A model generated the notes under the pieces. The model saw only the letters and a list, made by a program, of their open reading frames with translations. It did no database searches and was not told where the DNA came from. This document shows, one piece after another, positions 8,385 through 32,713 of a stretch of DNA of 64,000 bases. How positions within the stretch are numbered: the first letter of the stretch is position 1; every line of letters begins with the position of its first letter. The DNA is from a bacterium (GTDB lineage Bacteria > Zhuqueibacterota > QNDG01 > JABMRT01), in the NCBI GenBank assembly GCA_011046415.1, contig DSAP01000089.1, positions 4,064 to 68,063 of the forward strand, given 5' to 3'. The translations under genes and the position numbers were made by a program.

Positions 8385-8409
8385 GATGAACCCCGATCCC
8401 TGAGTGAAG

Positions 8410-8994
8410 TTACAAATCCGACTCATCTTTCCAACGCGTGATACGCCACTTTTGATCCTTGTTTTTTTTAAACGTGAATACAGCTCTGCCGGTGACGGTG
8501 TATCCGGTCTGCTCACCCACCAGGGTCAACCCGAATCCCCGGCTGATGTCGCTCGTTGTTTCGCCCGCGTTCTCATAAATGGTCTCATTCCAGACCAGAT
8601 CGATGACCTGGAAATGGCGGAACATCCGGCCCGTGGTGAGGAGGTCTTCGTGCCGTCCCCAGGATACGAACCGGCTCTCGTCCGGATTGAAGTAGACGAA
8701 AAGAAAGCCCGTATCGAGCACGTCGCTGTAGAGCAGGGAGTCGCGGAAGGTGTACGCGATCTTGAAATTCTGCAGCACCTCCTGCGGTGTCGCCTGGGAC
8801 GTGATGATCATGTCCGTCGCCTCCAGGTTGTCGGTCAGTCTGGGCGCGAAGGGGTTGAGACAGCCGGAAGAGAGGACGAGACCGGCGCAGACCGCAGCCA
8901 TCACCGCGAACCGGGTCGTGACGAACCGCATCCGTTTCTTTCGGCTCCCGGATGTCTTTCCGGGAACGATTTTATGGTTCCCACCCCGTTTCAT
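8410..8994 (-). CDS. Lipoprotein, hypothetical
   Basis: Lipobox LVLSSGC after a basic N-terminus. There is a 25-nt gap to the downstream Omp85-fusion gene. Confidence 0.5.
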   Translation of the reverse strand: MKRGGNHKIVPGKTSGSRKKRMRFVTTRFAVMAAVCAGLVLSSGCLNPFAPRLTDNLEATDMIITSQATPQEVLQNFKIAYTFRDSLLYSDVLDTGFLFVYFNPDESRFVSWGRHEDLLTTGRMFRHFQVIDLVWNETIYENAGETTSDISRGFGLTLVGEQTGYTVTGRAVFTFKKNKDQKWRITRWKDESDL

Positions 8995-11856: not shown

Positions 11857-11882
11857 AAAGACCTCCCGGAGTAATGGATATT

Positions 11883-13814: not shown

Positions 13815-14482
13815 CCATTTCCGCGGCCTGCGATGGCCTCGCGTTGTTTTTGGGAATTCAGATGCATCTTGCGCAGCAGTTTCCAGATCGTCAGCTTCCC
13901 GACCCGGATAAATCCGTACCGGTCCGTGTCGAGTTCCCGGGCGATCTGGCCGTGTCCCCATGAAGGGTGATCCAGCGCGATCTTGCGGATTTTTTCTTCG
14001 AGTCCTTCAGGAACATCCTCATCGGCTCCCTCCGAAGTCCGGATTTCCGTTTCCGCGTTTTCGGGTTCCTCTTGAACGGAATCAAGCTCTGCGGACTCTT
14101 CCTCGATGAAAGTTCGTGCTCCGTCCGCGCGATTGAAATCCCGGATCGCCGCCTCGACCGAATCATAGGCTTTGAGTATATAATGGAATTCGAGGAGTTC
14201 GAATACTTCGTATACGTCCGGAATCATGTTGGCCAGCTTGAGGTCACCGCCGCGCTCCCGGATTCCTTTGATCTCGCTGATGAAGATTCCCCAGCCGGCG
14301 CTCGAAATATAATCCACGTTCCGGAGATCGATGATGACGCGGAAGACACCCGATTTGAGCAGAGAATCCAGAGCGCGTTCGAGCTCTGAGGATGTGGTGG
14401 TGTCGATGTATCCGCCCACCTTGATGATCGAAATATCCTTTTGGGTCCCCGTTTTCTCTACAGAAACTTGAATGCCTTCCAT
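13811..14482 (-). CDS. STAS-domain anti-sigma-factor antagonist (SpoIIAA/RsbV-like) with a C-terminal transposase-type HTH extension
   Basis: STAS core with the phosphorylatable-Ser motif NVDYISSAGWG. Then an acidic linker and ALDHPSWGHGQIARELDTDRYGFIRVGKLTIWKLLRKMHL, an HTH_32-like sequence. Start taken at MEGIQVSV. Confidence 0.75.
   Translation of the reverse strand: MEGIQVSVEKTGTQKDISIIKVGGYIDTTTSSELERALDSLLKSGVFRVIIDLRNVDYISSAGWGIFISEIKGIRERGGDLKLANMIPDVYEVFELLEFHYILKAYDSVEAAIRDFNRADGARTFIEEESAELDSVQEEPENAETEIRTSEGADEDVPEGLEEKIRKIALDHPSWGHGQIARELDTDRYGFIRVGKLTIWKLLRKMHLNSQKQREAIAGRGNG
13814..13993 (-). other. HTH_32-like (IS3/IS481 transposase N-terminal type) DNA-binding module appended to the STAS protein
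   Basis: About 45% identical over about 55 aa to the HTH segment of the neighbouring kinase/phosphatase protein (the HPxYG..I..EL..xKYGF signature). Confidence 0.6.
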
Positions 14483-14556: not shown

Positions 14557-17500
14557 TCAACTTTTTTTCTGATAAACCGCCCTCTGCCGGATAAGCCGCT
14601 GCATCCGTTTAATGCGTTCCACGATATCGCCGCGCATGGGATCGCGCTTTAAAACCTCTCCCCACTGCCAAACCGCCCTCTTATAATCTCCCTGATTGGC
14701 GTAGATGACCCCCAGATTTTCGAGGATATGGACATTGTCCGGCATCAGCTCGCGGGCGGCCGTATACGCACGCTTGGCCTTTTCGAGCTGCCCCAGACGA
14801 AAATAGGCATCGCCCTGGGCATGGTAGGCTGCACCGAATTTCTGGTCGCATGCGATGGCCTTGTTGAACTCTTCGATGGCCCGAGCAAAGAGACCTTCCT
14901 GGTAAAACCACTGGCCGGATTCCAGAAACCGCATCCGGTTGAGCCGCCGGGCATTCTCCGGGTTGGCCTCCAGGATGGCCGGTTGCCGAGTCTCCAGATC
15001 CGACCCTTCACCGAGAAGGGAATCCGTCCATATCTCCATGTCCGTCTCGTCGAAAATCTCTCCGGTTATTCCGGATTCTTTCCGGCCCGAATCCTGGTTT
15101 TCCTCGCCGATCAATTCATCTATCAGAGATTCCTGCGAACCATCGGATAAAAACCCGGACATCAGGGGAAAAAACGCCGGATCATCCCCGGATTCTGTAA
15201 CCGCTTCCGGCAATACATCGCCACTGTCGTCTCCTGCGGCGAGCGGGTCGTCAAACGAGTCATCCATCCGTATCAGGAGACCGGAAGAATCATCAACGAG
15301 TGATTCAAACGAGAAGTCATCCCGGGGATCAGAGGACGGCTCACCCATCCTCTCAGTCAGCGCCTCGTCGATGTTTTCGGGGTGGGGCTGCTCGGATTCG
15401 GATTCGACGTCCAGTTCTTCCCAATCGGCTTCCATGGCTGAAATTTCCTCGTCATCGCCGGCGGACTCTCCGTCGTCTTCGGATGCGATGCCGGTGAAAT
15501 CGCGTTCGATCGCTTCCGCAAGGTCCTTGTCTCCGGGCGGCTGGACGGTCACTTCCGGTGTCTCCTGCACGGAAGGATGTTCTTCTGCTTCCTTATGTTC
15601 GGGTGGGGCGCCGCGTGAAACGGCGATCTCAGGTTGTTTTTCGGCCGGTTTTCCCTGGAGGTGATCCGTTTCGGGCGTCTTCTTTTCGGGCAGAGACGTT
15701 CCGGGCGACGGTTTCGAAGGGGCGGGCTTGCGGAGTGTCGGCGAAATAATAACCCGACCGTCCAGCGTCAGCATGGGCGTCCCCGGTGTTTTCATCCGTT
15801 TTCCGCGTCCGCCCCGCTCCACGAAGGCCATGCGGAGTTCCTTGGTATTGAGACGGTTTCGCACCAGTTCTTCGTATAACCGGGCTTCATCGATCTGGAA
15901 AAAGCCGTATTTTTCCGTGTTGAGCTCGTCACGGATCCGTTTCGGTCCGTACTCGGGATGGGTCTTGATTACATCAAAAATCTTGGCCTTGTCTTCGATG
16001 GCGATGTGTTTTTCTTCGATGAGGGAGCGGCCGACCCGGTCTTTCATTCCCTGCTCGCCGTTTTTTTCATAGAGTTTTTTATATTTATAATAAGTCGACG
16101 TGGAAACGCCCGCCTTCTCACAGGCCTCCTTGACTGTCATGCCTTCCTTCTGCACCATGCGAAGCAGATCCGTATGGATATTCAGAAACACCTCTTCCAC
16201 GCTCATCTTCTCGCGGATCGCAACCAGGGTGATGTCATCGCTCTGCGGCTCCCCGCCCGTAAAGGTATAGATCTCCTGTTTGATGCTCTCGACGAGGGGT
16301 TCCACCTTCTGATCGCCCGCCTTGCGGATCACGGACAAAAACCGCTCGTCTCCGAACCGGTTCCGGTTGATGTCCATCGCCTCGGTGATGCCGTCCGTAT
16401 AGACGATCAGCACATCATCCGGACGAAGCTGAAGCGTGTCCGACTCGATGGAATTTCTGAACAAAGTCTGGTCGGGCAGGTTGATTCCGATCGGAAAACC
16501 GCGCGGGTTCAGATAGTAGCTTTTCTGGCTTTGACCGCGGTAAAGAATCATGGGATTATGACCCGCGCTGGCATAGTTGATCGTCCTGCGTTTCGAGTCG
16601 AGGATGATGTAAAACACGGTGACGAACATGCCGCGCTTCATGTCGTTGATCACGAAATCATTGACTTTGGACAGCACATCGGCCGCATTCTTGTTGCCCC
16701 GCGCCTCCGTCCTGAGCGCCGTCCGAATCATGGTCATGACCAGTGATCCGGGCACCCCTTTGCCGGACACATCCGCGACCACGATTCCCAATGAATCCCT
16801 GTCCACCCTGAAAAAATCGAAATAGTCACCGCCCACCTCCTTGGCGGCCTCGTAGCAGGAGGCGATCTCATAGCCATCGATTTCAGGGAAGGTCGCCGGA
16901 AGCAGGGTGTGCTGGATTTCCTGGGCCACCTGCATTTCTTTCTGGAGCCGTTCCTGTTCCGCCAGATTTTCCTGGGATTTTCTGAATTTCTCCGTGATCT
17001 CGTTGAAGGCCTGGGCGATCTCGCCAATCTCGTCGTTCCCATCGAATTCCATCTCGTCCCGGACCTCGCCGTGGCCCAGATCGCGGACCCATTTGGAGAG
17101 TTTCTTGAAGGGACTCATGGTAAGATAGACGAGTCCGAATGTGAAGAGATATCCGAAAGCAAGCGCGAGAATCGCCTTGATAAGAGTAAATTGACGTTCC
17201 GATTTGATCGTTGCATCGATCATCTGTTTGTTCATCAACACATGGACGGTACCCAGGCGGATATTCCGGTTGTCCACCTGCTTGAGGGCCGGTTCGACGA
17301 CATCATACACCCTGACCCCGTCATGCTGAAACTGATACACATGATCACGGATCGGGTTCGCCCCGGCCGGCAAGATGAATTCATTGTGAAGCGCTTCGAG
17401 GTTGACGACTCCCTGAATTACGTTGATCGTATCCACGACGATGATCTCGACGATGCGGGGATGATATTCCCTGTGAATATCGGTCACGATCGTGGACAAG

Positions 17501-18153
17501 TCCCACCAGTTTGGGGGGTCGTAAGAAAGATACTCGATACTCTGGTGGCCGACGGACCTGGCCAGCGTTTCACCGGAAGCGAGCGCATCATTCCTGATTT
17601 TATTGTCAAGATGAAGATAGGTCCAGATGAACCAGATCAGCATCAACGCCGTCAGGAGCACCGAAGCGAGCGCGGAAAACCGGGTTTTCATGGAAAACGG
17701 AATCTCCGGAGTACGGAGCCGTTTCATGCCGGTCTTTCTCGATTTGGTGAGCCGGAGTTCATTGCCTTCCGGAAGTTTCCGGTAATCGATTTTGTCGATC
17801 ACACGCCGGATAATAAATATCCCGAGGCCGCCTTTCTTGCCGATATGCACGTAACGCTGGAGATCCGGGTCTTTCACCTGTCTGGGATCAAAGGAGTGCC
17901 CCTGGTCCACCAGCGACACCGTCACGTCCTTATCCCGGATTATCATCCGCATGGTGATCGCGCCTTCCCAGTCGCGGTAGGCGTGCCGGATGATGTTGGT
18001 GCCGGCCTCGTCGATTGCCAGTTTGAAGGCGTTGATCACCTGCTCTGAGATCCCGTGTTTCCGTCCGAAATGCATCACGGAATCGCGCATTTCACCCAGA
18101 TGATCGATCTCGGCAGGGAAGGTCCATTCTTCTTTGATGACGCGTTTGAACAT
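14557..18153 (-). CDS. Multidomain partner-switching regulator: RsbW-like GHKL Ser kinase, TM, periplasmic sensor, TM, HAMP, PP2C/SpoIIE phosphatase, transposase-type HTH (HTH_28 plus HTH_32), polyacidic region, TPR repeats
   Basis: Residues 1-145 are HATPase_c-like (AIDEAGTNIIRHAY, GGLGIFIIRRV). There are two hydrophobic helices. HAMP is NDEIGEIAQAFNEITEKF. PP2C is GGDYFDF..VADVSGKGVPGSLVMT..GHNPMILY..IVYTDGITEA. HTH is MTVKEACEKAGVSTSTYYKYKK followed by THPEYGPKRIRDELNTEKYGFFQ. A D/E-rich stretch of about 170 aa follows, then C-terminal TPRs. Confidence 0.8.
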   Translation of the reverse strand: MFKRVIKEEWTFPAEIDHLGEMRDSVMHFGRKHGISEQVINAFKLAIDEAGTNIIRHAYRDWEGAITMRMIIRDKDVTVSLVDQGHSFDPRQVKDPDLQRYVHIGKKGGLGIFIIRRVIDKIDYRKLPEGNELRLTKSRKTGMKRLRTPEIPFSMKTRFSALASVLLTALMLIWFIWTYLHLDNKIRNDALASGETLARSVGHQSIEYLSYDPPNWWDLSTIVTDIHREYHPRIVEIIVVDTINVIQGVVNLEALHNEFILPAGANPIRDHVYQFQHDGVRVYDVVEPALKQVDNRNIRLGTVHVLMNKQMIDATIKSERQFTLIKAILALAFGYLFTFGLVYLTMSPFKKLSKWVRDLGHGEVRDEMEFDGNDEIGEIAQAFNEITEKFRKSQENLAEQERLQKEMQVAQEIQHTLLPATFPEIDGYEIASCYEAAKEVGGDYFDFFRVDRDSLGIVVADVSGKGVPGSLVMTMIRTALRTEARGNKNAADVLSKVNDFVINDMKRGMFVTVFYIILDSKRRTINYASAGHNPMILYRGQSQKSYYLNPRGFPIGINLPDQTLFRNSIESDTLQLRPDDVLIVYTDGITEAMDINRNRFGDERFLSVIRKAGDQKVEPLVESIKQEIYTFTGGEPQSDDITLVAIREKMSVEEVFLNIHTDLLRMVQKEGMTVKEACEKAGVSTSTYYKYKKLYEKNGEQGMKDRVGRSLIEEKHIAIEDKAKIFDVIKTHPEYGPKRIRDELNTEKYGFFQIDEARLYEELVRNRLNTKELRMAFVERGGRGKRMKTPGTPMLTLDGRVIISPTLRKPAPSKPSPGTSLPEKKTPETDHLQGKPAEKQPEIAVSRGAPPEHKEAEEHPSVQETPEVTVQPPGDKDLAEAIERDFTGIASEDDGESAGDDEEISAMEADWEELDVESESEQPHPENIDEALTERMGEPSSDPRDDFSFESLVDDSSGLLIRMDDSFDDPLAAGDDSGDVLPEAVTESGDDPAFFPLMSGFLSDGSQESLIDELIGEENQDSGRKESGITGEIFDETDMEIWTDSLLGEGSDLETRQPAILEANPENARRLNRMRFLESGQWFYQEGLFARAIEEFNKAIACDQKFGAAYHAQGDAYFRLGQLEKAKRAYTAARELMPDNVHILENLGVIYANQGDYKRAVWQWGEVLKRDPMRGDIVERIKRMQRLIRQRAVYQKKS
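15814..16161 (-). other. Transposase-derived HTH_28 plus HTH_32 module embedded in the kinase/phosphatase protein
   Basis: Residues about 665-780 of the 1198-aa protein. No DDE catalytic domain follows. Confidence 0.6.
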
Positions 18154-18172: not shown

Positions 18173-20092
18173 TTACGGTTTCCTGAACGTTTGCAGCTTC
18201 TGCTTGGCGCCTTCGATCGCCTGAATCAGATTCACGTTGTGAGGATCTAGGATTAACGCCTCCTCCCAGACCTGAAGCGCCTCTTCATACCGTCCGTCGC
18301 GATATAGCCGGAGGCCCTCGTTCATTTTTCCGCGCACCTCTCTTTGTTCTTCTTCTGAGAGCGGTCTTTCATCCTTCGCGGAACGGGCCATGGCATTGCG
18401 GTACAGAGTCAGGATCCTGTCATTGTCCGGCTGATACTCCAGCGCCCTCTTGAAGAACGGGACCGCCTCCTCAAACTGTCCCCTGTTGAATCTCTCGATA
18501 CCGGCCTGGACATTGGATACATAATCCACGGCCTGGGCAAGACGGCGGATTTCCTGGTTCAACAGGTTTTCAAGGGAAGGAATGCCGACCGCCTGAGACC
18601 GGGCCTGTTCGAGTACGTTCCTGGCTTCAGACAGGTTTTCCTGCTGTACGAGGTTTCGGGCCCGCGAGATCGCCCGGTTCACCTGGCGTTCGAGTTCACC
18701 CCGGGCCTGCTGAATATAACGGATCAGGATTGCATTTCCGGGATCCACGGCCAAGGCCTCACGCCATCTTTCTATGGCCCGCTGATAATCGCCCCGCTCC
18801 ATGGCCTGATTGCCCTCCTTGAGTCGGGCGTTGACCAGTTCAAGATTCTGCCTGATTTCCAGCCTTTCCCGTTCCTCCCGGAGGATGGAATCCTGGCGTG
18901 CCTGCTGCCATTCCAGTTCACGCTCTTCCGTTATCCGAAGGAATTCCTGAGCCCGGGTATTGTTCCGGTCTTCCCTGAGCACACGGTTGAATTCGATTCG
19001 CGCGTTAAAATAGTCGCCCTTGTGGAGGTACTCCTGTCCGGACTGCAGGGCGTCGCGGATCCGTTTCCGGCGGTCCTGTTCCATCTTTTCCTGCAATTGG
19101 ACTTGCATTTCTTCCTCATGCCGGAGGCGTAATTCCTCCCTCGTTTCGGGGAGGCTCTTTCCGATATGGACGCTGAGTGAAAACAGATGGCTTCGCCTGA
19201 AAAAATCGGATTCGGACATTTTTGCCGTGGCATAATCAAACTGAATCGCTCGGTACCGAATGCCTCCCCCGAATGAGAGGCTGCCCTGATCGACTCCCAT
19301 GCGGAAGAAAACCAGGTGGTCGAAGGCATATTCACCGCCGAGGTGATAATGCAGTTTGCGGTTTTTAAGCCAGTCGACATCAGAGAGGAATACCAGCCTG
19401 TCCTGTCCGTCCCTCAATGAAAAAGCCTTGGCGAGGCCGATACGGGTCACGGTCGGCAGGGTTTCCGTGCGTGTCCCGAGTTTCATGCGCGGATTCACGG
19501 CATGCACGAGATTCATACCCAGGTGCAGCCCGTCCAGAAATCCTCCATTCCCGGGGAATGTATAATGGATCCCCGTGTCCAGGCCAAAGCCGTTTGTCGC
19601 ATACTGGCTACCCATCACCTGTCTGTTGACCTCCAAATTGAGGCCGACGGCGAGCCCGCGATAAACCGGGAGGGCGTAAGCCAATGAAAGTTTTCCCCAC
19701 CAGTAATCAAAATCTCCCGTGGACACCGGGACGCCCTGGATCTCCTCATATCCCGGGATACCGTCCGTGCCGACCCGTGAGAATCCGAATCCGAAGACAC
19801 CCGCATTCAGGGTCGGATGGACATATCCGATAAAATGGTATTGAACTCCCTCGAACAGCGTGGTCTGACTGAACAGGGCGTTTTTGCTCTGAACCAGCAG
19901 CATCCCCGCCGGATTCCAGGAAAAAGCGGAGGCATCTTCAGGAAAGGCGACGGATGCTCCGCCCAGACCCAGGCCGCGGGCGCCGATCCCGATGGAAAAC
20001 GGGCTTTCCCTGCCGGCGTCTCCATTTACTTCGGCCTCGGAAACACCCGTCAGCAGCCCAAAAAGACAGACAAAGACAAGTTTCAAACGCAT
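18173..20092 (-). CDS. FadL/PorV-family outer-membrane beta-barrel (about 310 aa) fused to an about 330-aa TPR / coiled-coil C-terminal extension
   Basis: Signal peptide, then GARGLGLGGASVAFPEDASAFSWNPAGM, a FadL/PorV N-terminal hatch-like motif with NPAG. There are alternating-hydrophobic beta strands and the barrel ends ..GGIRYRAIQFDYA. The C-terminal half is rich in TPR-like and charged coiled-coil repeats. Confidence 0.55.
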   Translation of the reverse strand: MRLKLVFVCLFGLLTGVSEAEVNGDAGRESPFSIGIGARGLGLGGASVAFPEDASAFSWNPAGMLLVQSKNALFSQTTLFEGVQYHFIGYVHPTLNAGVFGFGFSRVGTDGIPGYEEIQGVPVSTGDFDYWWGKLSLAYALPVYRGLAVGLNLEVNRQVMGSQYATNGFGLDTGIHYTFPGNGGFLDGLHLGMNLVHAVNPRMKLGTRTETLPTVTRIGLAKAFSLRDGQDRLVFLSDVDWLKNRKLHYHLGGEYAFDHLVFFRMGVDQGSLSFGGGIRYRAIQFDYATAKMSESDFFRRSHLFSLSVHIGKSLPETREELRLRHEEEMQVQLQEKMEQDRRKRIRDALQSGQEYLHKGDYFNARIEFNRVLREDRNNTRAQEFLRITEERELEWQQARQDSILREERERLEIRQNLELVNARLKEGNQAMERGDYQRAIERWREALAVDPGNAILIRYIQQARGELERQVNRAISRARNLVQQENLSEARNVLEQARSQAVGIPSLENLLNQEIRRLAQAVDYVSNVQAGIERFNRGQFEEAVPFFKRALEYQPDNDRILTLYRNAMARSAKDERPLSEEEQREVRGKMNEGLRLYRDGRYEEALQVWEEALILDPHNVNLIQAIEGAKQKLQTFRKP

Positions 20093-20119
20093 GATCTCAC
20101 CCGGCCCTGTTCGGCTTTT

Positions 20120-20362
20120 TTATTTTACGAAAGCCATTTTGAATTTAAATATCTCTCCATTTCCGGTCTGCATGATCAGATGGTAGACGCCGTTCAAGAC
20201 CTCCCAGCCCCTGTCATTGCAGCCGTCCCATGTCCAGCGGTTCACCTGGCCGGCCGACACCTCCGATTCGGCGACGTCATATGACTTGACGAGCTGGCCG
20301 ACAAGGGTATAGATTCTAAAGGAAACGGAGGTCGGTTCCGGAATGTAGTAATAGATCGTGGC
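20120..20362 (-). other. Coding segment for the T9SS-type (Por_Secre_tail / FlgD-Ig-like) C-terminal sorting domain of the giant protein
   Basis: Matches the general TIGR04183-type pattern (NPF...I.Y.I..V..IY.L.GQLV....G...W.G.....G..GVY.......K...K). Confidence 0.55.
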
Positions 20363-23300
20363 GGTCTCCCTGCCCGGCTCACCGAACGGATTGGGACTGC
20401 TCCACAATCGGGCTTCTTCGTTTGGATTGAAAATCCGGAGTGGCGCCGAAGGAATGCTTTCCAGTTCGTCTCCTGTCGGACTCTTGACGAGTACGTCACG
20501 GTCTGAAGCGGCTTCTCTCGCCGAAATGGCCTGTCCGTCCGGCACGCTCACCCTGAAAAAGGGGACGGTCTGTGACTCCGCGATGCGTCCGCGAATCAGA
20601 ATTTTTTTGCTCTGATTGTAAGGAATTTCGAGACCGGACAGGGAAATCCGGACCGGGTTGGCCTCCGGAATCTGGGCCGTCGTTCCGTAAATGTCCGGCC
20701 CATTCATCTCGACCGCCTCGAGACGGGACACCGCCGACCGTGGCCCGATATCTTCGCCTTCCCGTCCCGTGAGGGTCAGCCAAATCTCGCGGATGATGAT
20801 GGGATAGGCACCGGTTTCTCCCCGGTTCTGAAACTCCAGGCCGAGCAGGGGGACGTTGCTTTGCCCGGGCGTCAGGGACTGATTTGCCCCGGACAAGACC
20901 AACGGCGTCACAGAGAGCCAGGTTGATTGTAACCGGACGGCGACGGCATGATAATCCCGTCCGACAAATGCAGGTTGATCGGTATTCTCATCAACGGGAA
21001 TCTTCGTGAGCCGGGATTCGATCTGGGCGGCCGCGGTGGAAGGTTGTGACGGGGCTTTAATCGTCCAGAAGGCCTCGCCGCCGGAGAGTGTTTGCGCCAG
21101 GACCTCCCGTGTGGTATATTGAGGTGGAAGCGCGAGGAGCGAGACTTCGATGTCACCGATGGTTTGGGCTTCCCCGGAATTCTGAACCGCGGCCCGGACC
21201 ACGAATTCCTGTCCCAAAGAAACCGTGCCGTATTGTGCAGCCTCCGGCGGACTGTCGATCGTCAAGAATAGCGCAAGATCGGCCTTGGAAACGGTGTTCA
21301 GGGGGAGTGCATTCGGTACTCCTCCGATGGGAACCGCGGGTTGCAATGCATCAACACCCCTTGCCGTAACGATGAGAGTGCCTTCGGATACAGGCGTCGT
21401 CGGAGCCGTGACCAGCCAGGTCACCGTATCTCCGCTCGCGCTCTGGGTCAGGTTGTTTTTGGTGTGATATCCGAAGGGGAGTTCGATCCGTGCCGTGATT
21501 TCCGTGACATTGTCGGAAATCATTTCTGTCCGGACCACGAAGGACTGTCCCGTGGACAGGATACCGTCCGAGGCGCCCGACGGTGCGGAAATGGACGTGA
21601 CGGATCTCAGCCGGCTGGCGATGGTGGTAATCGGCGCCTCGGCAAATTGATCTGTGACGACAACCCGGACATCCGTGTTTTTATCGATCGGATACTGGAT
21701 CAGATCGACGCGGACCTTGTCGTTTGTCGAAGGTTCATTCGGGGCCCTGAGTCGCCATTCTGCCGGAACCTCAGGAGTGATACCGGCCGAATCCGACGCC
21801 GAGATCAACTGGTATCGATCGGGCCAGCGTATCCTCACGCGTCCCTCATTCTTTAATGCGGAAGATCCCTGCTTGAGCAGTCTGCCCTTCACCTTGAATT
21901 CCTGATTGACAGAAACCACACCGTCGGCCGGTTCGGTTTCTATACTCAGAGAGAGAGAGGCTGGACTCTGGACAAATACCACGGCGGTGGGATCGCTGGC
22001 CTCTCCGATGGGTGCGTCATCCGTTCCGTTCTCCCGTTTAGCCCCCTGAATCCGGGACGTAAAGGTTTCTCCGGAGAGGTTTTCCTGATTTGCCGCCAGT
22101 ACGTCAAACCACACCGAGTCACGTCTGGAGGGTTCAAGGCGGGTTAACAGGACCTGCGGATTTTCGATGGCCGAAAGGCCATTGGATTCCATCCGGACGT
22201 CGATGTTGCGGATCGTGAAACTCAAACCGTTCTCGACGATCACCAAGACACGAAAAGCCTGTCCGGTATTCACGAAGCCGTTTTTTGACTCGGTGGTGTT
22301 TACTGTCGCGATTTCCGTCGAGATAATCCGGAAATCCGGTTTGGACTCGATAAAGACCTGCGCCTCGTTCTCTGCCCTGAGCGTCCGCAGGTCGTTGCGG
22401 TCTTTGCCCCCGGCCCGGACGCGGATCCGGACATCTCCTCCGTAGGTACCGGTCGTATTCACATGATAGATCAGCGAATCGGTCACCCCGGGGGCGAGGA
22501 TCAGGCCGCCTCCTTTCAATGCGTTCGGGGGAACGACTTTATAATCCGTCTGATAAATGCCGCCCACGAAGAAGGCGACGCTGTCGGCAGAGGGTCTCGA
22601 GAGTTCGATCGCCGACCCGCCTGTGTTGCGGACGGCGACCTTGATGTGCCACGGATCGGTTTGACCGCCGAGAAGAAGAGTCTGTGAAGTCGAGACGGAC
22701 AATACCTGAAAGACCGCAGGATTCTGGATGGTCGCCGTGGCCGTCTTGTCTGGAGAATTCCCGTCCTCCAGGAAAAGGGCCGTGTTTTCGGCAAATCCGC
22801 TTGCAGAAACGGTGAATGTCTCCGATCCGGGAAGGGTCGACGCCGTCACCGGAACGGTCAGAGAATGAACCTGCCCACCGGATAATGTTCCGATATAATG
22901 TGCCCTGACAAAAGATGAGGTGCCGGAACTTCCGATTTCCACCTCCACATCCCGCATGGCGTCTTCGCCGAGGTTTTCGACCTGGAGGAAGAGATCGAAA
23001 ACCTGCCCGCGGTTCACATACGGGCTGTTCGGGGCGCGGTTGGTGACTTGCCGGACGATCAGATTGGCCGGTGCTTCGATCAGGACTTGCCCGTGACCGC
23101 CGTCGCGCGTGTCTGTCTCGAGTCGCCGCCCTGTAGTCATTTCGAGGCCTGCAACATAGGCGTCGATCCTGCAAAGACCGGCGGCCTGATCGGTCGTCCG
23201 TGTCACTTCAAATATCAGACTGTCGGTTTCACCTCCCTCAAGAACCCAGTCACCGGTCCAGGAAGGCGGATAGGTCAACTCCCATGTCTGGGGAGCGCCC

Positions 23301-26300
23301 AGAGAAAATTCCAGATAGCTCGCGGTCGTACTCGAGTCGATCGCCGTCGCGCTTCCTCCGGTGTTGGTGGCCACGACGGCCACACGCCAGGGCATGACCT
23401 GGCCCCGAGAGACCTCGGCCTGGGACGGCTTGACCATATGGATCACCAGATTCGCCGGCGTCTGTACCAGGAGGTTGGTAAATGCATCATCCGACAGGGT
23501 GACCCCGGAGCCCAGCAGATACACGAAAAGCCGAATCGTGGCGCCCCCCGCATCGCTGCCGGTGTGAAGAACGGGAATCAGGAGCGAATCGATCCCGTTT
23601 CCGGGCAGCGTCTCCTCGGCGCTGCCCCAGAACGCCGTCGGCAGCTGGAGGGTGTAATCGTGGCGCACGATACCGGCCACATTGAATTGAAGCCGGACAC
23701 TGTCGAGACGGACCTCTGATCCGCTGAAATTGCGGACGGTACAACGGAGATACCAGACCGAATCCTGATCGGTTGTGACGGATTGAATGCCGGTGGCCCT
23801 GTCTTTCCCGACCGCCCTGAAATCGGAGACCAGAATGCCCGGAGAAAGCACCACATCGAACAAATTGGATTCCGAAAAAATAAAACCGCCTGTCTGAGTC
23901 ACTCGCATTCGGTTGGCCGTCCTGGCCTGATGCACCGTGACGCCGGTCGTCAACACGCCGTTGCTGAAATTCGGGCTGACATCGGGTCTGATCGTGCCTG
24001 TCAGATCCGAAATATCCACGGTTTGGGTGAAATTGGTCTTGACATTGCCGTAAGCGTCTTCTGCGGTAAGCGTGGTTGAAAAGGGAACCCCCACGATCTG
24101 ATCCCCGATATGCTGGATCGCAAATCGGTTCAACGCCGCGGGCAGCACGTTGAACAGATTGGAACTTCCCCTTTGCACGCCCCCCTGGTAAACCATGATT
24201 CTCACATCATTCCTGGCCCCTGTAATTCGAACCGTTTGTGTGAGGAGGCCGGCGCTGAACGATCCGGTCGCAGCCGGCGTCAGCGTGCCTGTGCTGTCGG
24301 AAAGGGAAACCTGTCCCGCAAACTGGGTCACGATATTCTGATATGTGTCGAGCGCGGTCAGGTATATCTGGAAGTCTGTACCCGCCATCTGCGGACTGGC
24401 CACCGGGGCCACAGAAATGGTCTGAACCGACCCCGGATTGACATTGAAGACCTCCGAGACGCCGCTTTTCCCGAGTCCGCTCACGGTAAGCCGGTTCTGT
24501 GACTGGCTCTTCGTGATGGTTACCGTGGCGGTCCCCACACCGGATGAGAAGGTGATCTGTTTCACATCATTGGTCCCGGTAAGGTCTGCGAGATTGACCG
24601 TTTCATTGAAGCCGGTGACGAGATTGTTGTTCACGTCATAGGCGCGGACGGTCACGGAGAATCCCTGACCCGCGGTCTGCGGCGTCGATATCGGATCAAA
24701 TGTGAAATGGTCCACGGTCGTCGGGATCACGTTGAAGGTATTCGAGATGGCGCTTTGCGTACCACCGTCCCGGACGACCGTGATCCGGTCATTCGTTTGG
24801 GTCTGGGTCACCGAAATCGTGCCAGACCAGATGCCGCTTTGAAAATCATCGCTCTGAGACCGTGAAAGCGATCCCGTGCCGGTATGGCCGATGTTGACCC
24901 GGTTTCCCGGTCCGCTAAACCCTGTCACGGTGTTGTCATACGCATCCTGCGCGGTCACGGTGAGGCTGAAGGGCACGCCCGGCGTCTGGGTGGCGATCTG
25001 TGCGATGGCGAAATGATCCAGTGTATTGGGCGCCACGTTGAAGGCGTTCGATGTCCCCGTATGGCCGGCGCCGTCGTCCGCCGTGACCCGGACATCGTTG
25101 ACCGCCTGTGTAATCGTCAGGGTGACCGTACGGGTGCCGTTCGAAAAGGCGCCGGAAACAGACGGCGAGATCACGACGGGAGAGGAACCCGACGCGGCTG
25201 AAAGCGGAACCGTGCCGTTAAACGACTGTGAGACATTTCCGAAGGCGTCGCGTGCCGTGATCGTGACCGGAAAACCGGTTCCCGCCGTTCGCGGACTGGG
25301 GACTGCCGAAAACTCAAACCGGCTGACGCCCGCTCCGGCCACATTGAATGGGTTGGAAGTCCCGCTTTTACCCAGCGCCGTCGCGGTCAGGACATTGCTG
25401 TTCATGGCTTGCGAGATCGAAATCGTACCCGTCCATGTCCCGTCGACGAGGGTGACCTGCTGCGGCGAATGCGTTCCCGTCTCATCACGGATATTCACCA
25501 CCTGGTTGGTGAAACCGGTCACAATATTGTTGTTGACATCTTCGGCGCGGATTGTTACGGAAAAACCGACGCCCGCCGTCTGGTTCACGGGAATCGCGGA
25601 AATCACGAAATGGTCGACCGTACTCGAAATCACATTGAAGGCGTTCGACTGGCCGGTGTGTCCGGACCCGTCGTTCACCGTAATCCGGTCATCCGTCTGG
25701 ATTTGATTGATACGCAGGTTTCCGGTCCAGACACCGCCAGTAAAATCGCCGCTCTGGGTGGGAATGAGGGTTCCCGTACCCGTATGGGAAATGTTGACCC
25801 GCCGGCCTGAGCCGGAGAAGGAAGCGGCCGTGTTATCGAAGGCATCCCTCGCCGTGATGGTCACCAGAAAAAATTCTCCCGCCGACTGGGTGCTGATGTT
25901 GGACAGGGTGAAATGATCCACGGCCGCGCCGTTGACATTGAAGGGACCGGATGTCCCGGTGCGGCCGCCTCCGGAAGCCTGGATATATATGTCCGTGTTC
26001 GCCTGGGTAATCCGGACATTCCCCGTCCAGACGCCCGAGGAGAAATTTTCTGTGCTCGCCGAAGATGTGGCATCAACCGTGACCGTACCCGTCTTCTCGC
26101 TGAGGGTCGCCGGATTCGTATAATCTGTCTTGATATTGTCGTAACCGTCATAGGCCGTGATGGTCAGGCTGAACGGAACACCGGCCGTCTGCGGACTGGA
26201 GATGGGGCCGAATACAAATTGATCCAGGGCTCCCGGTAACACATTGAATGCGGCGGATGATCCGGAACTCGTACCGGATGTCGCCAGGATCGCATTGGAA

Positions 26301-27025
26301 GCGGCCGTTTTCGTCACACGCACGTTACCGCTCCAGATGCCCGAAGAAAATGCGGTGGTCTGATTCGTCCCGGTCCCGGTCACGATGACCGTACCGGTTT
26401 GGTCCGATAGGGTCACGGCGCCGGAAAAGCCATCAGCCCGGTTGCCGAACGCATCCCGCGCTTCGATGTCGGCCTGAAAGTCCGTCCCGGCGACCGCGCC
26501 GGTCCCCGTAACCGAAGCCGGAAGCGAGACCTGAAATGTTTGTACGGGCCCCGGATCAAGCGTGGCGGACGCGGAGGTCCCCCGTTCAATGGGTGTATTA
26601 TCGGCCTCCCGGGTGGTGACGATTACCTGGAAATTACCCGAAGCGGCCCGGTTGGTCACCACCGCGAACTGGATCGTTTCTGCGCCGGCCGTCGCCGGAC
26701 TCCCTGTTCCGTTCCTCTGAGCGATCAGGGAGTCACCTGCGGATGTGACAGACAGGCCGCCATCCAGGGTAGCCGACGAAACGATGCTGACCGTCGAAAG
26801 ATCGAATCCTGATGGATAGCGGACGACAATCCGTCCGTCGGAGGGGATGGTGTCGGCATGGTTGAAAGAGACGGTGTGTATGCTCCGTTGACCCACCGTC
26901 GCATCATCGAGGGTGATCTGCACGGCTGTCAGTGTCTGGGCCAACACACCGACAGGAAACAGGAGGAGAAAGGTGGTTAAGGACAGCCCGATTTGTGTTT
27001 TCGCAGTCATTTTCATAAATGTCAA
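20120..27025 (-). CDS. Giant (2301 aa) secreted cell-surface protein with at least 9 tandem about 100-aa Ig-like repeats, further CARDB-like repeats and a T9SS-type C-terminal sorting domain
   Basis: TTG start, then a signal peptide (MTFMKMTAKTQIGLSLTTFLLLFPVGVLAQ). Repeat units end in ..FNV and share the pattern DHF..I..QTAG.PFS.T.TA.D..NN.VTGF. Later repeats read ..APANLIV..V.N.GG.A. The C-terminus reads PNPFGEPGRETATIYYYIPEPTSVSFRIYTLVGQLVKSYDV..WDGCNDRGWEVLNGVYHLIMQTGNGEIFKFKMAFVK. Confidence 0.8.
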   Translation of the reverse strand: MTFMKMTAKTQIGLSLTTFLLLFPVGVLAQTLTAVQITLDDATVGQRSIHTVSFNHADTIPSDGRIVVRYPSGFDLSTVSIVSSATLDGGLSVTSAGDSLIAQRNGTGSPATAGAETIQFAVVTNRAASGNFQVIVTTREADNTPIERGTSASATLDPGPVQTFQVSLPASVTGTGAVAGTDFQADIEARDAFGNRADGFSGAVTLSDQTGTVIVTGTGTNQTTAFSSGIWSGNVRVTKTAASNAILATSGTSSGSSAAFNVLPGALDQFVFGPISSPQTAGVPFSLTITAYDGYDNIKTDYTNPATLSEKTGTVTVDATSSASTENFSSGVWTGNVRITQANTDIYIQASGGGRTGTSGPFNVNGAAVDHFTLSNISTQSAGEFFLVTITARDAFDNTAASFSGSGRRVNISHTGTGTLIPTQSGDFTGGVWTGNLRINQIQTDDRITVNDGSGHTGQSNAFNVISSTVDHFVISAIPVNQTAGVGFSVTIRAEDVNNNIVTGFTNQVVNIRDETGTHSPQQVTLVDGTWTGTISISQAMNSNVLTATALGKSGTSNPFNVAGAGVSRFEFSAVPSPRTAGTGFPVTITARDAFGNVSQSFNGTVPLSAASGSSPVVISPSVSGAFSNGTRTVTLTITQAVNDVRVTADDGAGHTGTSNAFNVAPNTLDHFAIAQIATQTPGVPFSLTVTAQDAYDNTVTGFSGPGNRVNIGHTGTGSLSRSQSDDFQSGIWSGTISVTQTQTNDRITVVRDGGTQSAISNTFNVIPTTVDHFTFDPISTPQTAGQGFSVTVRAYDVNNNLVTGFNETVNLADLTGTNDVKQITFSSGVGTATVTITKSQSQNRLTVSGLGKSGVSEVFNVNPGSVQTISVAPVASPQMAGTDFQIYLTALDTYQNIVTQFAGQVSLSDSTGTLTPAATGSFSAGLLTQTVRITGARNDVRIMVYQGGVQRGSSNLFNVLPAALNRFAIQHIGDQIVGVPFSTTLTAEDAYGNVKTNFTQTVDISDLTGTIRPDVSPNFSNGVLTTGVTVHQARTANRMRVTQTGGFIFSESNLFDVVLSPGILVSDFRAVGKDRATGIQSVTTDQDSVWYLRCTVRNFSGSEVRLDSVRLQFNVAGIVRHDYTLQLPTAFWGSAEETLPGNGIDSLLIPVLHTGSDAGGATIRLFVYLLGSGVTLSDDAFTNLLVQTPANLVIHMVKPSQAEVSRGQVMPWRVAVVATNTGGSATAIDSSTTASYLEFSLGAPQTWELTYPPSWTGDWVLEGGETDSLIFEVTRTTDQAAGLCRIDAYVAGLEMTTGRRLETDTRDGGHGQVLIEAPANLIVRQVTNRAPNSPYVNRGQVFDLFLQVENLGEDAMRDVEVEIGSSGTSSFVRAHYIGTLSGGQVHSLTVPVTASTLPGSETFTVSASGFAENTALFLEDGNSPDKTATATIQNPAVFQVLSVSTSQTLLLGGQTDPWHIKVAVRNTGGSAIELSRPSADSVAFFVGGIYQTDYKVVPPNALKGGGLILAPGVTDSLIYHVNTTGTYGGDVRIRVRAGGKDRNDLRTLRAENEAQVFIESKPDFRIISTEIATVNTTESKNGFVNTGQAFRVLVIVENGLSFTIRNIDVRMESNGLSAIENPQVLLTRLEPSRRDSVWFDVLAANQENLSGETFTSRIQGAKRENGTDDAPIGEASDPTAVVFVQSPASLSLSIETEPADGVVSVNQEFKVKGRLLKQGSSALKNEGRVRIRWPDRYQLISASDSAGITPEVPAEWRLRAPNEPSTNDKVRVDLIQYPIDKNTDVRVVVTDQFAEAPITTIASRLRSVTSISAPSGASDGILSTGQSFVVRTEMISDNVTEITARIELPFGYHTKNNLTQSASGDTVTWLVTAPTTPVSEGTLIVTARGVDALQPAVPIGGVPNALPLNTVSKADLALFLTIDSPPEAAQYGTVSLGQEFVVRAAVQNSGEAQTIGDIEVSLLALPPQYTTREVLAQTLSGGEAFWTIKAPSQPSTAAAQIESRLTKIPVDENTDQPAFVGRDYHAVAVRLQSTWLSVTPLVLSGANQSLTPGQSNVPLLGLEFQNRGETGAYPIIIREIWLTLTGREGEDIGPRSAVSRLEAVEMNGPDIYGTTAQIPEANPVRISLSGLEIPYNQSKKILIRGRIAESQTVPFFRVSVPDGQAISAREAASDRDVLVKSPTGDELESIPSAPLRIFNPNEEARLWSSPNPFGEPGRETATIYYYIPEPTSVSFRIYTLVGQLVKSYDVAESEVSAGQVNRWTWDGCNDRGWEVLNGVYHLIMQTGNGEIFKFKMAFVK
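24030..26580 (-). repeat. Intragenic tandem array of diverged about 300-nt units encoding Ig-like repeats (protein identity about 35-50% between units)
   Basis: Repeats are evident in the translation. The DNA copies are diverged rather than exact. Confidence 0.55.
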
Positions 27026-27169: not shown

Positions 27170-28453
27170 TCAGCCACCCTGCTTGAAGTATTGCTTGATC
27201 AGATCGCCGGTTTTCATATAAATCTCTGCGACTTTCTCTTTCGAAAAAGGGAGGAGGAGACGTTTTCCCGAATCGTTTTCCGCGTCGTTCAGTATTTGCA
27301 TTACGGTTCTCAGGTTGTCATGCGCCCGGACGAGACCGGTCATCGCGGATTCGCTCAGCCGGTCAACTTGCCCCGGATTCCTGGCAAGTTCTTGGTTGAT
27401 CCATGCCTGAAAACGCCGCAACGACTCCCCGTCTCTTTTTCCCTCTCCGTACAGATAATTGAGAAAAAAGAAATCCGACTCCGCAGGTAATAAAAGGCGC
27501 GTTCTGTCGTACATCCCCTCGAGGATATTCAAAGCGGATCCATGATCACCGGCATCGATGCGTTGAAAAGCCTCTACGATGGTTTTACTGCGAAACTCCG
27601 GGGAGAGCGCGACGGCCTTTTTCAAGGCAGCCATCGTTTTTTCAGACCCTGTCTGGTCATTTTTTATCGCCTGTCCCCGCAACAGTTGTATTCCTAAAAA
27701 GAGATACGCCCGTGGAGAATCCGGGCGGAGACGCAACGCCTCTCGTATCGCATCCTCCGCCTGATCCGTTTCGGACATCCGATGGTAAATCCATCCGAGC
27801 TGCAGCCTGAGATCCGCATTTTCCGGGGCCTTCCCGACGGCCCTGCGGATGAGAGCCTCTGCCTCTGCGTACAGGCCCAGTCTGAGATATATCTCGGACA
27901 ACAGAAACGCATTGTCAGGGAGCAGAGGATGATTTCCGTCAACCGGTTCCAGAACGGCGCGGGCGTCATCGTAAAAATGCCAAGCCAGAAGCAGCCGACC
28001 GAGGCGGAAGAGGCTTGGGCCGTGGCGGAGCCGTATGATTTCTGCCAGGATCCGGTCGAGAAAAAGGATTTCCTGCTTCCGCGTATGGTGAACGGCCACG
28101 ACCGTGGAATGCACGATATCCGGCGAAGTATCGATGTCGATGTCCCGCTCCCTTCGGTCAATCACCCTGCCCCGGTCAAAAAGCGTCGAGACGATATGCT
28201 TTGCATCGCTCAGGGTGTGGGTTTGCAGATGCAGGATCCTGCCTGAGAAATGCACATTGTCGCTCAAATTGTGTTTTTTCATCGATGGCATCGGAATCCG
28301 GGGGGAACATCGCCGGACAAATAAAGGCATGTCGCCCGTGCATCCTGTTCGGATGCCGGGTCGTAAATAAGGCATGTTTTCCCCCAAGGCGTTCTTGATA
28401 TTACAAAAACACTCCCGTCTATTTTCCGAGGAGACAACAAATGGCCGCGACAT
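27170..28453 (-). CDS. TPR-repeat protein, hypothetical
   Basis: Multiple TPR-like helices (AYLFLGIQLLRGQA.., LRLQLGWIYHRMSE..). The real start may be the internal MKKHNL near 28282. Confidence 0.5.
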   Translation of the reverse strand: MSRPFVVSSENRRECFCNIKNALGENMPYLRPGIRTGCTGDMPLFVRRCSPRIPMPSMKKHNLSDNVHFSGRILHLQTHTLSDAKHIVSTLFDRGRVIDRRERDIDIDTSPDIVHSTVVAVHHTRKQEILFLDRILAEIIRLRHGPSLFRLGRLLLAWHFYDDARAVLEPVDGNHPLLPDNAFLLSEIYLRLGLYAEAEALIRRAVGKAPENADLRLQLGWIYHRMSETDQAEDAIREALRLRPDSPRAYLFLGIQLLRGQAIKNDQTGSEKTMAALKKAVALSPEFRSKTIVEAFQRIDAGDHGSALNILEGMYDRTRLLLPAESDFFFLNYLYGEGKRDGESLRRFQAWINQELARNPGQVDRLSESAMTGLVRAHDNLRTVMQILNDAENDSGKRLLLPFSKEKVAEIYMKTGDLIKQYFKQGG

Positions 28454-30593: not shown

Positions 30594-31673
30594 TCAGCCG
30601 ATTTCCACCCAGAAGGTGATGCCCATTTTAACCCGGGATGCATGGAAATCTGCAATATCGGCCGGAGCCAGGAGTAATTTACTCACGCCCCAATGGCCTT
30701 CGATTTGTTTCAGGTCATGCATGAAAGCAAACACATTTTTTTTCTCACCCTCGATGATCATGTGTCCCGATGAGTGCTGTTTCGGCTGCTGAACGATGCC
30801 CGCCGGCTTCGCAATGCTCTGTAAAGCAATTCCGTGTTGAGCGCAGAGGGTTTTGATCCGCCCATGAAAGCTTGTCATCGTGGGATAAGGATTGGCGCCC
30901 GGTGACGGTGCATGTGCACTGAAAGGGGGGAGGGTCCCTGAGACGACCCCCCAGTAGTTGTCCTGGCCTGCCGTCCTGTGTCTCTCTTCGGGAGATACCG
31001 CATAATTGTCCGCACCAAAAAGGGTCTGAATCCGCTGCCCCATGGCATCGGCGACACCGGGGGTCTTCGAGACATACTCAACCAGATACCGGTTATTGTT
31101 GATGATGACGACACCGGCCTGACCCTGGGCGCTCAGGTTTTCAAAAACCGTCCGGGTTCCTGCGAGAACGTCATAACGTCCCTCGACGGCCGGCCGGATC
31201 GTCTCCGGTGTTTGTTCCTGGTCCGTTGGCTGAGCGGGAGCCGTTTCTGCCGGTTGCACGGGACGCACCGCAACCGGTTTCGTTGCCGGAGGTTTGGGCT
31301 TCGGTAATTTGATTGCTACGGGCTTGTTCAATGTGGGATAGATGACATATATAAACAACACAGCGGCCACGGCAAACAACCCGACCCCGATGAGTAGCCA
31401 GGGAGGAGATTTCTTCGGTCCGGACCCTTCGAACGTATAATCATCATCCAGACCCTCTTCTTCCTCTTCGAAATCAGGAAGGGTTTCGTCACCATCCAGC
31501 AGTGTATCTCCCCCCAGCCCGGCATCGTCCGACAAATCATCCCCCAGGTTCAGATCGCCTGAGAAATCATCATTATCCCGTCTGCCAGCGTCCGATGACC
31601 CCGAAGGCCGTTGTTCAGGGGAACTGTCGCTTTGGTCTTCGAAGCCTTCGTCAAATAAATTAATATCTACCAT
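30594..31673 (-). CDS. Bitopic membrane protein with a polyacidic cytoplasmic N-terminus, one TM helix, a Pro-rich linker and a periplasmic domain (PilN/O/P-like role possible)
   Basis: D/E-rich N-terminus (DFEEEEEGLDDDY), TM helix PPWLLIGVGLFAVAAVLFIYVIY, linker LPKPKPPATKPVAVRPVQPAETAPAQP, and an about 180-aa C-terminal domain. Confidence 0.45.
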   Translation of the reverse strand: MVDINLFDEGFEDQSDSSPEQRPSGSSDAGRRDNDDFSGDLNLGDDLSDDAGLGGDTLLDGDETLPDFEEEEEGLDDDYTFEGSGPKKSPPWLLIGVGLFAVAAVLFIYVIYPTLNKPVAIKLPKPKPPATKPVAVRPVQPAETAPAQPTDQEQTPETIRPAVEGRYDVLAGTRTVFENLSAQGQAGVVIINNNRYLVEYVSKTPGVADAMGQRIQTLFGADNYAVSPEERHRTAGQDNYWGVVSGTLPPFSAHAPSPGANPYPTMTSFHGRIKTLCAQHGIALQSIAKPAGIVQQPKQHSSGHMIIEGEKKNVFAFMHDLKQIEGHWGVSKLLLAPADIADFHASRVKMGITFWVEIG

Positions 31674-31690
31674 GTGACGACTCCTCCATG

Positions 31691-32704: not shown

Positions 32705-32713
32705 TCAAAAACG

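Follow-up and report, generated by a model that had tools for sequence, protein, structure and literature searches.

We describe a run of four genes on the minus strand of a 64-kb stretch of contig DSAP01000089.1 (hereafter the window) from a KSB1-like bacterium; candidate division KSB1 is Candidatus Zhuqueibacterota, of the FCB group. In order, the genes encode a giant secreted surface protein with a C-terminal sorting domain (CTD) like those of type IX secretion systems (T9SS), an outer-membrane barrel of the PorV family with a tail of tetratricopeptide repeats (TPRs), a membrane sensor that is also a partner-switching enzyme, and a STAS-domain protein. The order of the four genes is conserved in distant relatives. 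We consider it probable that they form a conserved envelope module, in which the barrel holds the giant protein on the cell surface by its CTD, as PorV holds PorU, and the tail links the pair to the sensor. The features are as follows.

20120..27025, minus strand: giant gene, encoding a secreted surface protein of 2301 aa with a TTG start (open reading frame (ORF) and full-length orthologues)
26939..27025, minus strand: Sec-type signal peptide of the giant protein, aa 1-29, with predicted cleavage after ...VGVLA and before QT (sequence reading and a hydropathy peak at aa 10-39)
23858..26560, minus strand: nine tandem class A Ig-like repeats of ~100 aa, aa 156-1056 (iterated hidden Markov model (HMM) searches and repeat alignment)
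20852..23812, minus strand: ~8 class B beta-sandwich units of ~120 aa, aa ~1072-2058 (HMM)
20123..20437, minus strand: C-terminal T9SS-type sorting domain, aa ~2197-2301, PNPFGEPG...WDG...NGVY...KMAFVK (profiles and AlphaFold2 (AF2) model)
18173..20092, minus strand: barrel-TPR gene, encoding 639 aa (PorV-family barrel and TPR tail)
20033..20092, minus strand: signal peptide of the 639-aa protein, aa 1-20
19157..20014, minus strand: PorV-like domain, with a hatch (aa 27-66) and a 14-stranded beta-barrel (aa 70-310) (NF033709, AF2, Foldseek and barrel profile)
18176..19153, minus strand: all-helical C-terminal tail, aa 314-637, with long helices and TPR hairpins (TPR models and AF2)
14557..18153, minus strand: gene for the membrane sensor/partner-switching enzyme, 1198 aa
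13811..14518, minus strand: gene for the STAS-domain (RsbV-like) protein, presumed substrate of the kinase and phosphatase, 235 aa
47592..50210, plus strand: for context only, an ExeM/NucH-type nuclease whose T9SS type A sorting domain scores 28.6 bits on TIGR04183 (cutoff 23)

The giant protein and its tailed barrel

The four genes are closely packed. By their ORF coordinates, the start of the barrel-TPR gene lies 27 nt beyond the giant stop codon on the same strand, as reported in an earlier, sequence-only reading of this DNA. Gaps of 19 nt and 38 nt precede the sensor gene and the STAS gene, respectively. These short gaps contain no convincing terminator, and a scan for sigma-70 promoters and terminators was undecisive, the consensus being poorly suited to FCB-group organisms. 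Dozens of full-length homologues exist for both the giant and the 639-aa ORFs, and both are therefore real genes. Full-length orthologues of the giant protein are 2254-2342 aa long and 38-54% identical to it; its database copy, P0065, starts at Met4 (ATG codon 4) and has 2298 aa.

Hydropathy and iterated HMM searches bear out the description of the giant protein in the sequence-only reading, namely a signal peptide, at least nine tandem Ig-like repeats and a second class of repeat. The signal peptide is of the AXA type. Comparison of the protein with itself by BLASTP gave no off-diagonal match, and the repeats were found by iterated HMM. Class A repeats are intimin/invasin (Big_1)-like: the repeat profile matches the FdeC adhesin (4e9l_A, E 7e-8), and other giant proteins with class A repeats bear Big_1 or Invasin_D3 Pfam matches. 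Class B units are weakly CARDB/DUF11-like, with sub-threshold scores in piecewise Pfam scans (20.5 bits to CARDB for one unit, cutoff 22.7, and 18.5 bits to DUF11); the E-values of these units in our own HMM searches are inflated by training on the same giant sequence. The last class B unit is a beta-sandwich in the AF2 model.

The last ~105 residues of the giant protein follow the pattern PNPFG..T.I.Y.L....V.F.IYTL.G.LV...WDG.ND.G..VLNGVY......G....K.KIA.VK. Taken alone (last 110 aa), this segment passes the cutoffs of FlgD_ig (31 bits, cutoff 27) and TIGR04183 (23.3 bits, cutoff 23), in agreement with its initial description as T9SS-type and FlgD-Ig-like. An AF2 model of aa 1930-2301 (18 orthologues, pLDDT 86) has three beta-sandwich domains, of which the CTD is modelled with pLDDT ~90. 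The closest match to this model in the PDB is P. gingivalis PorU (6za2, E 1.3e-7), and the remaining matches are generic arrays of Ig and macroglobulin domains. We considered the possibility that the giant protein is a PorU homologue and rejected it, because the protein has no sortase or peptidase match and the CTD alone matches. A homologue search with the last 212 aa returned nothing; the full-length query gave homologues.

All 21 aligned CTDs from related loci match TIGR04183 (E<=0.01; best 3.7e-8) and the CTD portion of the PorU model. FlgD_ig is matched by 19 of the 21, PorZ by 17 and PF18962 by 7. A CTD profile scan over all ORFs of the window matched the giant protein and the 872-aa ExeM/NucH nuclease only. 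The giant CTD scores 31.6 bits against the nuclease CTD, versus 65-133 bits among orthologous CTDs. Specific clustering of the giant CTD with the retained CTDs of PorU type was also considered and rejected, since the difference is small (42-49 bits, versus 31.6 to the nuclease CTD). Overall, the giant C-terminus looks like a T9SS-type sorting domain that is closest to type A and forms a distinct subclass.

The N-terminal half of the 639-aa protein was originally read as a FadL/PorV-like barrel with a hatch motif, and profile, fold and structure searches agree. Residues 33-309 match the NCBIfam PorV_fam model NF033709 with 95.7 bits (cutoff 90) over model positions 8-325 of 326; the profile search thereby assigned the barrel to PorV_fam and not to an unrelated porin family. 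The hatch motif, GLGLGGASVAFPEDASAFSWNPAG, lies at aa 41-64 and includes several residues that do not vary within the family. A barrel-only profile from 16 family members matches F. johnsoniae PorV (6h3i_F) with E 2.3e-24, the profile being covered in two stretches, whereas FadL-type chains reach only E 0.04. In the AF2 model (31 sequences, pLDDT 84.3), aa 31-66 form short helices and aa 70-310 form 14 long strands. The best PDB matches of this model in Foldseek are the PorV chains 8gl6_F and 6h3i_F, from T9SS translocon complexes (E 1.5e-10, target TM-score 0.64-0.67). FadL and TodX rank lower, followed by TPR proteins. There is no PorP/SprF model among the profile matches of the barrel. By its profile scores, the barrel is a divergent paralogue within the PorV/PorQ family, orthologous to none of the named components.

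The C-terminal half is of a different kind. Residues 314-637 of the AF2 model are exclusively helical, among them TPR hairpins and long helices (45 and 54 residues), and aa ~335-635 match many TPR models (TPR_2 81 bits). The initial impression that such a tail is foreign to PorV, PorP and FadL proteins is upheld, and the characterised PorQ proteins lack one too. The tail is conserved in sequence, for example in the motif GDYFNARxEFxRVLxED at aa 358-376. Given the even number of strands and the precedent of PorV and FadL topology, the tail should be periplasmic.

Similar proteins are numerous. Some 60 clusters of homologues share the length and architecture of the 639-aa protein, and the family is already named by annotation pipelines: NCBI calls its members "PorV/PorQ family protein" or "tetratricopeptide repeat protein", with "bacterium", candidate division KSB1 and Zixibacteria as sources. 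The barrel alone (aa 1-320) gave 1337 matches at E<=1e-10 among 1.84 billion representatives; among the best 150 cluster representatives, ~114 are at least 500 aa long with the barrel at the N-terminus. All ten distant family members that we sampled have TPR tails, two of them longer than 1000 aa. From these predicted proteins, tailed PorV-like barrels are a large metagenomic family rather than a one-off. Tails of this length occur in P0226 (1442 aa) and P0278 (1361 aa), both PorV-like barrels with more than 1000 residues of TPR; P0226 (locus L039) is also preceded by a CTD protein.

The partner switch and the conservation of gene order

The 1198-aa sensor combines an RsbW-like kinase domain (aa 12-137), a first transmembrane (TM) segment (157-183), an extracytoplasmic domain (184-321), a second TM segment (322-347) and a HAMP domain. 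These are followed by a PP2C/SpoIIE phosphatase domain (452-647), a helix-turn-helix (HTH) segment (664-709), an acidic linker and TPRs (1078-1172). The scores are 172.9 bits for SpoIIE, 95.1 bits for HATPase_c_2 and 33.7 bits for HAMP, and the product of the next gene matches STAS with 66.1 bits. Hence, a PP2C phosphatase, a HATPase_c_2 serine kinase and a STAS substrate are encoded together, as in partner switches of the RsbU/RsbW/RsbV type. Neither in the window nor in related loci does a sigma factor gene lie alongside. The HTH region of the sensor, C-terminal to PP2C (aa 664-770), is of the IS481/IS3 type, and the C-terminus of the STAS protein has an HTH_21-like segment (IS3-transposase type). 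The STAS tail (aa 176-233) has matches within the regulator genes of four related loci (L002, L004, L008 and L010). Domesticated transposase HTH modules in the sensor and the STAS protein may be the output of the switch.

Related loci were found with an alignment of 14 closer barrel-TPR sequences. The order giant, barrel-TPR, RsbW/PP2C regulator and, where the flank reaches, STAS is present in 19 genome loci (38-52% identity, plus 29% on the closed Calditrichales chromosome OZ254086.1). The collinearity of closer relatives extends to pta, coaD, rsmD, acn and idh; the Calditrichales chromosome retains the four-gene core only. The core order is also kept at 24-31% identity in six further loci (L029, from Zixibacteria, and L032, L033, L035, L037 and L038). 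The named relatives are KSB1, Calditrichales and Zixibacteria, which agrees with the assignment of this DNA to a lineage outside the Bacteroidota by the sequence-only reading. That reading also pointed to a partner-switching regulator immediately downstream of the pair; RsbW/HAMP/PP2C and STAS follow the barrel in ~25 loci from KSB1, Calditrichales, Zixibacteria and unclassified metagenome-assembled genomes (MAGs).

The content of the sensor gene varies among these loci. The sensor of L033 has a recognisable sCache_3_2 domain, and in L037 the HAMP-PP2C protein, the RsbW kinase and the STAS protein are encoded by three separate genes. In L030 and L031 (CAZLUL010000042.1, ERZ25083858), the gene after the barrel encodes a sCache_3_2-HAMP-HD-GYP protein, and the CTD cargo and the barrel are in place. 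A swapped sensor output domain with a constant gene position is a pattern typical of physical or functional partnership. Among the related loci compared, no partner-switching genes lie next to plain PorV-like barrels.

The pairing of cargo and barrel is kept in 27 of the 28 evaluable places, which is the outcome of the comparison of gene order in related MAGs that had been suggested as a check. In L001-L003, L005-L019, L029-L035 and L037-L039, the gene directly upstream of the tailed barrel encodes a large CTD-bearing protein. The body of this cargo ranges from 977 to >3300 aa, the same CTD is found in every one tested, and the cargo and barrel genes often overlap by 4 nt. A 427-aa TPR protein is encoded 144 nt upstream of the giant gene (27170..28453, minus strand), in a position kept in most KSB1-type relatives at 24-31% identity. 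We rejected it as a member of the module, since no signal peptide is evident and the deep homologous loci lack the protein.

How the module may work

Is there a T9SS for these proteins to use? Within the window, the sign of one is the second CTD cargo, the ExeM/NucH nuclease. Five more distant loci, L020-L024, have the classical porU-porV gene order: PorU-like sortases, scoring 257-410 bits on NF033707 in those loci with a sufficiently complete gene, are followed by plain PorV_fam barrels of 341-347 aa. The sortases are ~1570-1610 aa long, just under the PorU equivalog cutoff, with long extra segments ahead of the CTD. One MAG, JAFGGN01, has both a giant/barrel-TPR cluster (L007) and, separately, a PorU-like sortase (370 bits, cutoff 420) adjoining a plain PorV-like barrel of 347 aa (L022; JAFGGN010000043.1, 1737..7470 and 10691..14326). 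A 1211-aa TPR protein is also encoded in L022, and its similarity to PorW/SprE is below threshold. Together, these loci indicate that the lineage has T9SS attachment-type components, and they point to a putative divergent T9SS attachment complex in FCB lineages outside the Bacteroidota. Furthermore, the co-occurrence in JAFGGN01 of a PorU-like sortase and a plain PorV-like barrel with the tailed barrel argues that the tailed barrel is an extra, cargo-dedicated paralogue.

The domain identities, the fold and the order of the genes are established; the mechanism is inferred. We propose that the giant protein would be exported by Sec and would then cross the outer membrane by means of its C-terminal T9SS-type domain. 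The CTD would not be released onto lipopolysaccharide; it would stay on the dedicated PorV-family barrel, as PorU stays on PorV and PorZ on PorQ. The outcome would be the surface display of a fibre of ~20 Ig-like or beta-sandwich domains. In the periplasm, the ~325-residue helical/TPR tail of the barrel could act as a built-in PorE-like partner that docks the cargo-barrel pair to a periplasmic component, most likely the extracytoplasmic domain of the adjacent HAMP sensor. We propose this contact because the next gene encodes a two-TM transducer with an extracytoplasmic domain and HAMP even where the output domain has changed. Through the RsbW-type kinase and the PP2C phosphatase fused in it, the sensor would control whether the STAS protein is phosphorylated.

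A more speculative extension, which we put forward tentatively, is that the whole module is a trans-envelope surface-sensing device. The fibre would be the antenna, the CTD would sit in the barrel, the TPR tail would be the relay to the HAMP sensor, and the output would be the kinase/phosphatase switch or the hydrolysis of c-di-GMP. The signal might be load or ligand binding on the fibre, or the presence, absence or export status of the fibre itself. If true, TonB-dependent cell-surface signalling would have a counterpart built on PorV, and T9SS-type anchoring would for the first time be linked to partner-switching regulation.

Several observations weigh against a dedicated anchoring module. 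The core T9SS genes (SprA/Sov, PorK/L/M/N and PorU) were not found among the ORFs of the window. The barrel scores below the cutoffs of the equivalog models for PorV (NF033710, 17.5 bits, cutoff 250), PorQ (NF033711, 35.4 bits, cutoff 220) and PorVQ2, or "PorV2" (NF052325, 71.7 bits, cutoff 325). It is also ~80-100 residues shorter than F. johnsoniae PorV, so that docking to SprA is uncertain. Within the full-length giant protein, the CTD is below the cutoffs of both FlgD_ig (23.5 bits, cutoff 27) and TIGR04183 (16 bits, cutoff 23). The class of the CTD is not clean, since 15 of the 21 aligned CTDs also weakly match the type B CHU_C model; for the giant CTD itself, the sole Pfam match at E<=0.01 is FlgD_ig, with no CHU_C. 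Among close relatives, the module sits in housekeeping synteny (pta, coaD, acn, idh), and functional linkage is hence argued by the deep comparisons only. Finally, one tailed member of the family, P0237 (L036), stands alone, with no adjacent cargo or sensor.

An alternative explanation is that the 639-aa protein is a general PorV shuttle with an incidental TPR, and the giant protein a type A cargo of the usual sort, which is attached to lipopolysaccharide after cleavage by PorU. Their adjacency would then reflect the collinearity of KSB1-type relatives over the whole neighbourhood. The barrel does belong to PorV_fam, and the nuclease, as the other CTD cargo of the window, would need a PorV too. 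However, JAFGGN01 has a separate plain barrel next to the sortase as well as the tailed one, the adjacency of cargo and barrel persists at 24-30% identity despite changed housekeeping neighbours, and the cargo CTDs are a subclass apart from the nuclease CTD. We therefore regard this explanation as unlikely. It is very improbable that the barrel is a FadL-like channel for the uptake of hydrophobic molecules, with a periplasmic TPR scaffold and no functional relation to the giant protein. PorV itself belongs to the FadL superfamily, and FadL and TodX are the second tier of fold matches, but the sequence profile favours PorV by ~20 orders of magnitude. Moreover, the pairing with CTD proteins is conserved, and no lipid or aromatic catabolism genes are adjacent in the window.

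The barrel-TPR protein could also be a self-sufficient exporter, similar to Slam (type XI secretion) or to an usher, in which the TPR captures the giant protein in the periplasm and the barrel, with BAM, brings it to the surface without a T9SS translocon. As in Slam, TPRs and a 14-stranded barrel are encoded beside the surface protein presumably served, many homologues have precomputed matches to PF24575, and an exporter of this kind would fit a window without T9SS core genes. In contrast to Slam, the TPR domain is C-terminal, so that the domain order is reversed. The window protein matches TPR_Slam weakly (13.9 bits, cutoff 35.2) and has no match to DUF560, the unrelated family of the Slam barrel. 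Instead, the barrel is PorV-like in both sequence and fold. Slam substrates are lipoproteins, whereas this cargo bears a T9SS-type CTD and not a lipobox, and a related MAG encodes a PorU-like sortase. A 14-stranded barrel plugged by a hatch would also be an improbable conduit for a multidomain protein of 2300 aa. Taken together, these points make a self-sufficient exporter quite unlikely.

Relation to known systems and other genes of the window

The anchoring module that we favour has its closest precedents in the pairs PorU-PorV and PorZ-PorQ, which belong to the T9SS attachment complex of Porphyromonas gingivalis and Flavobacterium johnsoniae. PorU, PorZ and PorA retain their CTDs, which are bound to PorV and PorQ (PMC11285876). 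As in these pairs, in which the CTD is the tether, a gene for a CTD surface protein lies immediately upstream of a gene for a 14-stranded barrel of the PorV/PorQ family. In contrast, cargo of the window type is an Ig-like fibre of 977 to >3300 aa with no peptidase match, and is not a sortase or a carrier of anionic lipopolysaccharide. The window barrel is shorter, fails the equivalog models and has a ~325-aa TPR tail, predicted to be periplasmic; in addition, the module includes a signalling system, and its KSB1-like host is not a member of the Bacteroidota.

The sequence-only reading had likened the pair to SprB and SprF. This comparison stands as a functional analogy only, for the pairing of a giant adhesin or dedicated cargo with its own anchoring barrel, encoded beside it, which is also the arrangement of P. 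gingivalis PG1035 and PorP (PMC9143113). It fails for the barrel, which is of the PorV/PorQ family and not PorP/SprF, and for the CTD, which matches type A/FlgD_ig and not type B (CHU_C/TIGR04131); the order of cargo followed by barrel is the only feature in common. PorU-PorV or PorZ-PorQ is thus the closer precedent in gene order. In P. gingivalis, the PorP barrel binds the periplasmic protein PorE, which has a TPR domain, and the cargo PG1035 has a type B CTD (PMC9143113). The fusion of barrel and TPR in the window resembles the PorP-PorE arrangement in one polypeptide, although the tail is without the WD40 and OmpA_C domains of PorE.

Signalling from a CTD protein also has a precedent. In P. 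gingivalis, the CTD of PorA contacts the PorY sensor in the periplasm (PMC12152298). As may be the case here, a PorV-bound CTD protein informs a sensor in the cytoplasmic membrane and couples the status of the cargo to gene regulation. However, in P. gingivalis the CTD itself contacts the histidine kinase and the genes are not in one module, whereas in the window the candidate link is the tail of the barrel. The transducer of the window also differs, being a HAMP/RsbW kinase/PP2C protein that acts on STAS, or HD-GYP in one branch.

The closest known counterparts of the switch itself are SypE-SypA of Vibrio fischeri and BtrU/V/W of Bordetella, where a single STAS protein is the target of both a kinase of RsbW type and a phosphatase of PP2C type. 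SypE carries the two activities on a single chain. The outputs of these systems are surface or secretion phenotypes, and not a neighbouring sigma factor. Unlike them, the window regulator receives its input through a two-TM extracytoplasmic domain and HAMP rather than a receiver domain, has an additional HTH and TPRs, and has a T9SS-type cargo-barrel pair as its genetic partner.

To our knowledge, the biology of T9SS has been worked out almost wholly in Bacteroidota, where PorV is a ~400-aa shuttle without a periplasmic domain, and we know of dedicated anchoring barrels for type B cargo only (PorP/SprF). In the literature that we searched, no paper describes a periplasmic TPR domain on a barrel of the PorV type, or the pairing of such a tailed barrel with giant CTD proteins and partner-switching sensors. 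We also found no paper on T9SS in KSB1 or Calditrichota (the search did not extend to Zixibacteria), and the paper on Zhuqueibacterota does not mention secretion or motility. The PorV family gains a large, undescribed branch with a fused TPR domain that is predicted to be periplasmic. The pairing of tailed barrels with their own giant CTD proteins would carry the principle of a CTD retained on its cognate barrel beyond PorU and PorZ, to structural surface proteins. Should the proposed anchoring and signalling prove correct, they would lead to testable predictions on how T9SS-type surface structures are positioned and monitored, and the four genes would be a marker set for a major cell-surface structure of uncultured KSB1/Zhuqueibacterota, Calditrichota and Zixibacteria.

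Three other sets of genes in the window may be recorded. On the minus strand (30594..34588), three consecutive genes upstream of rsmD-coaD-pta encode proteins of 624, 337 and 359 aa, and the position of the 359-aa protein is kept in several related MAGs. The 624-aa protein has an N-terminal TM segment and no family match, the 337-aa protein is weakly PilM-like (PF11104, 36 bits), and the 359-aa protein has a single TM segment and no family or PDB match. This set may be an uncharacterised envelope machine. On the plus strand (55331..60630), two tandem overlapping genes encode fusions of an MFS-like membrane domain and a spermidine-synthase-like domain, of 761 and 1005 aa, the latter with additional C-terminal TPRs. 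Finally, a gene at 5238..8516 (minus strand) encodes a 1092-aa protein with Peptidase_MA_2 and PD40/WD40-like beta-propeller repeats, in which the CTD profile found no CTD.

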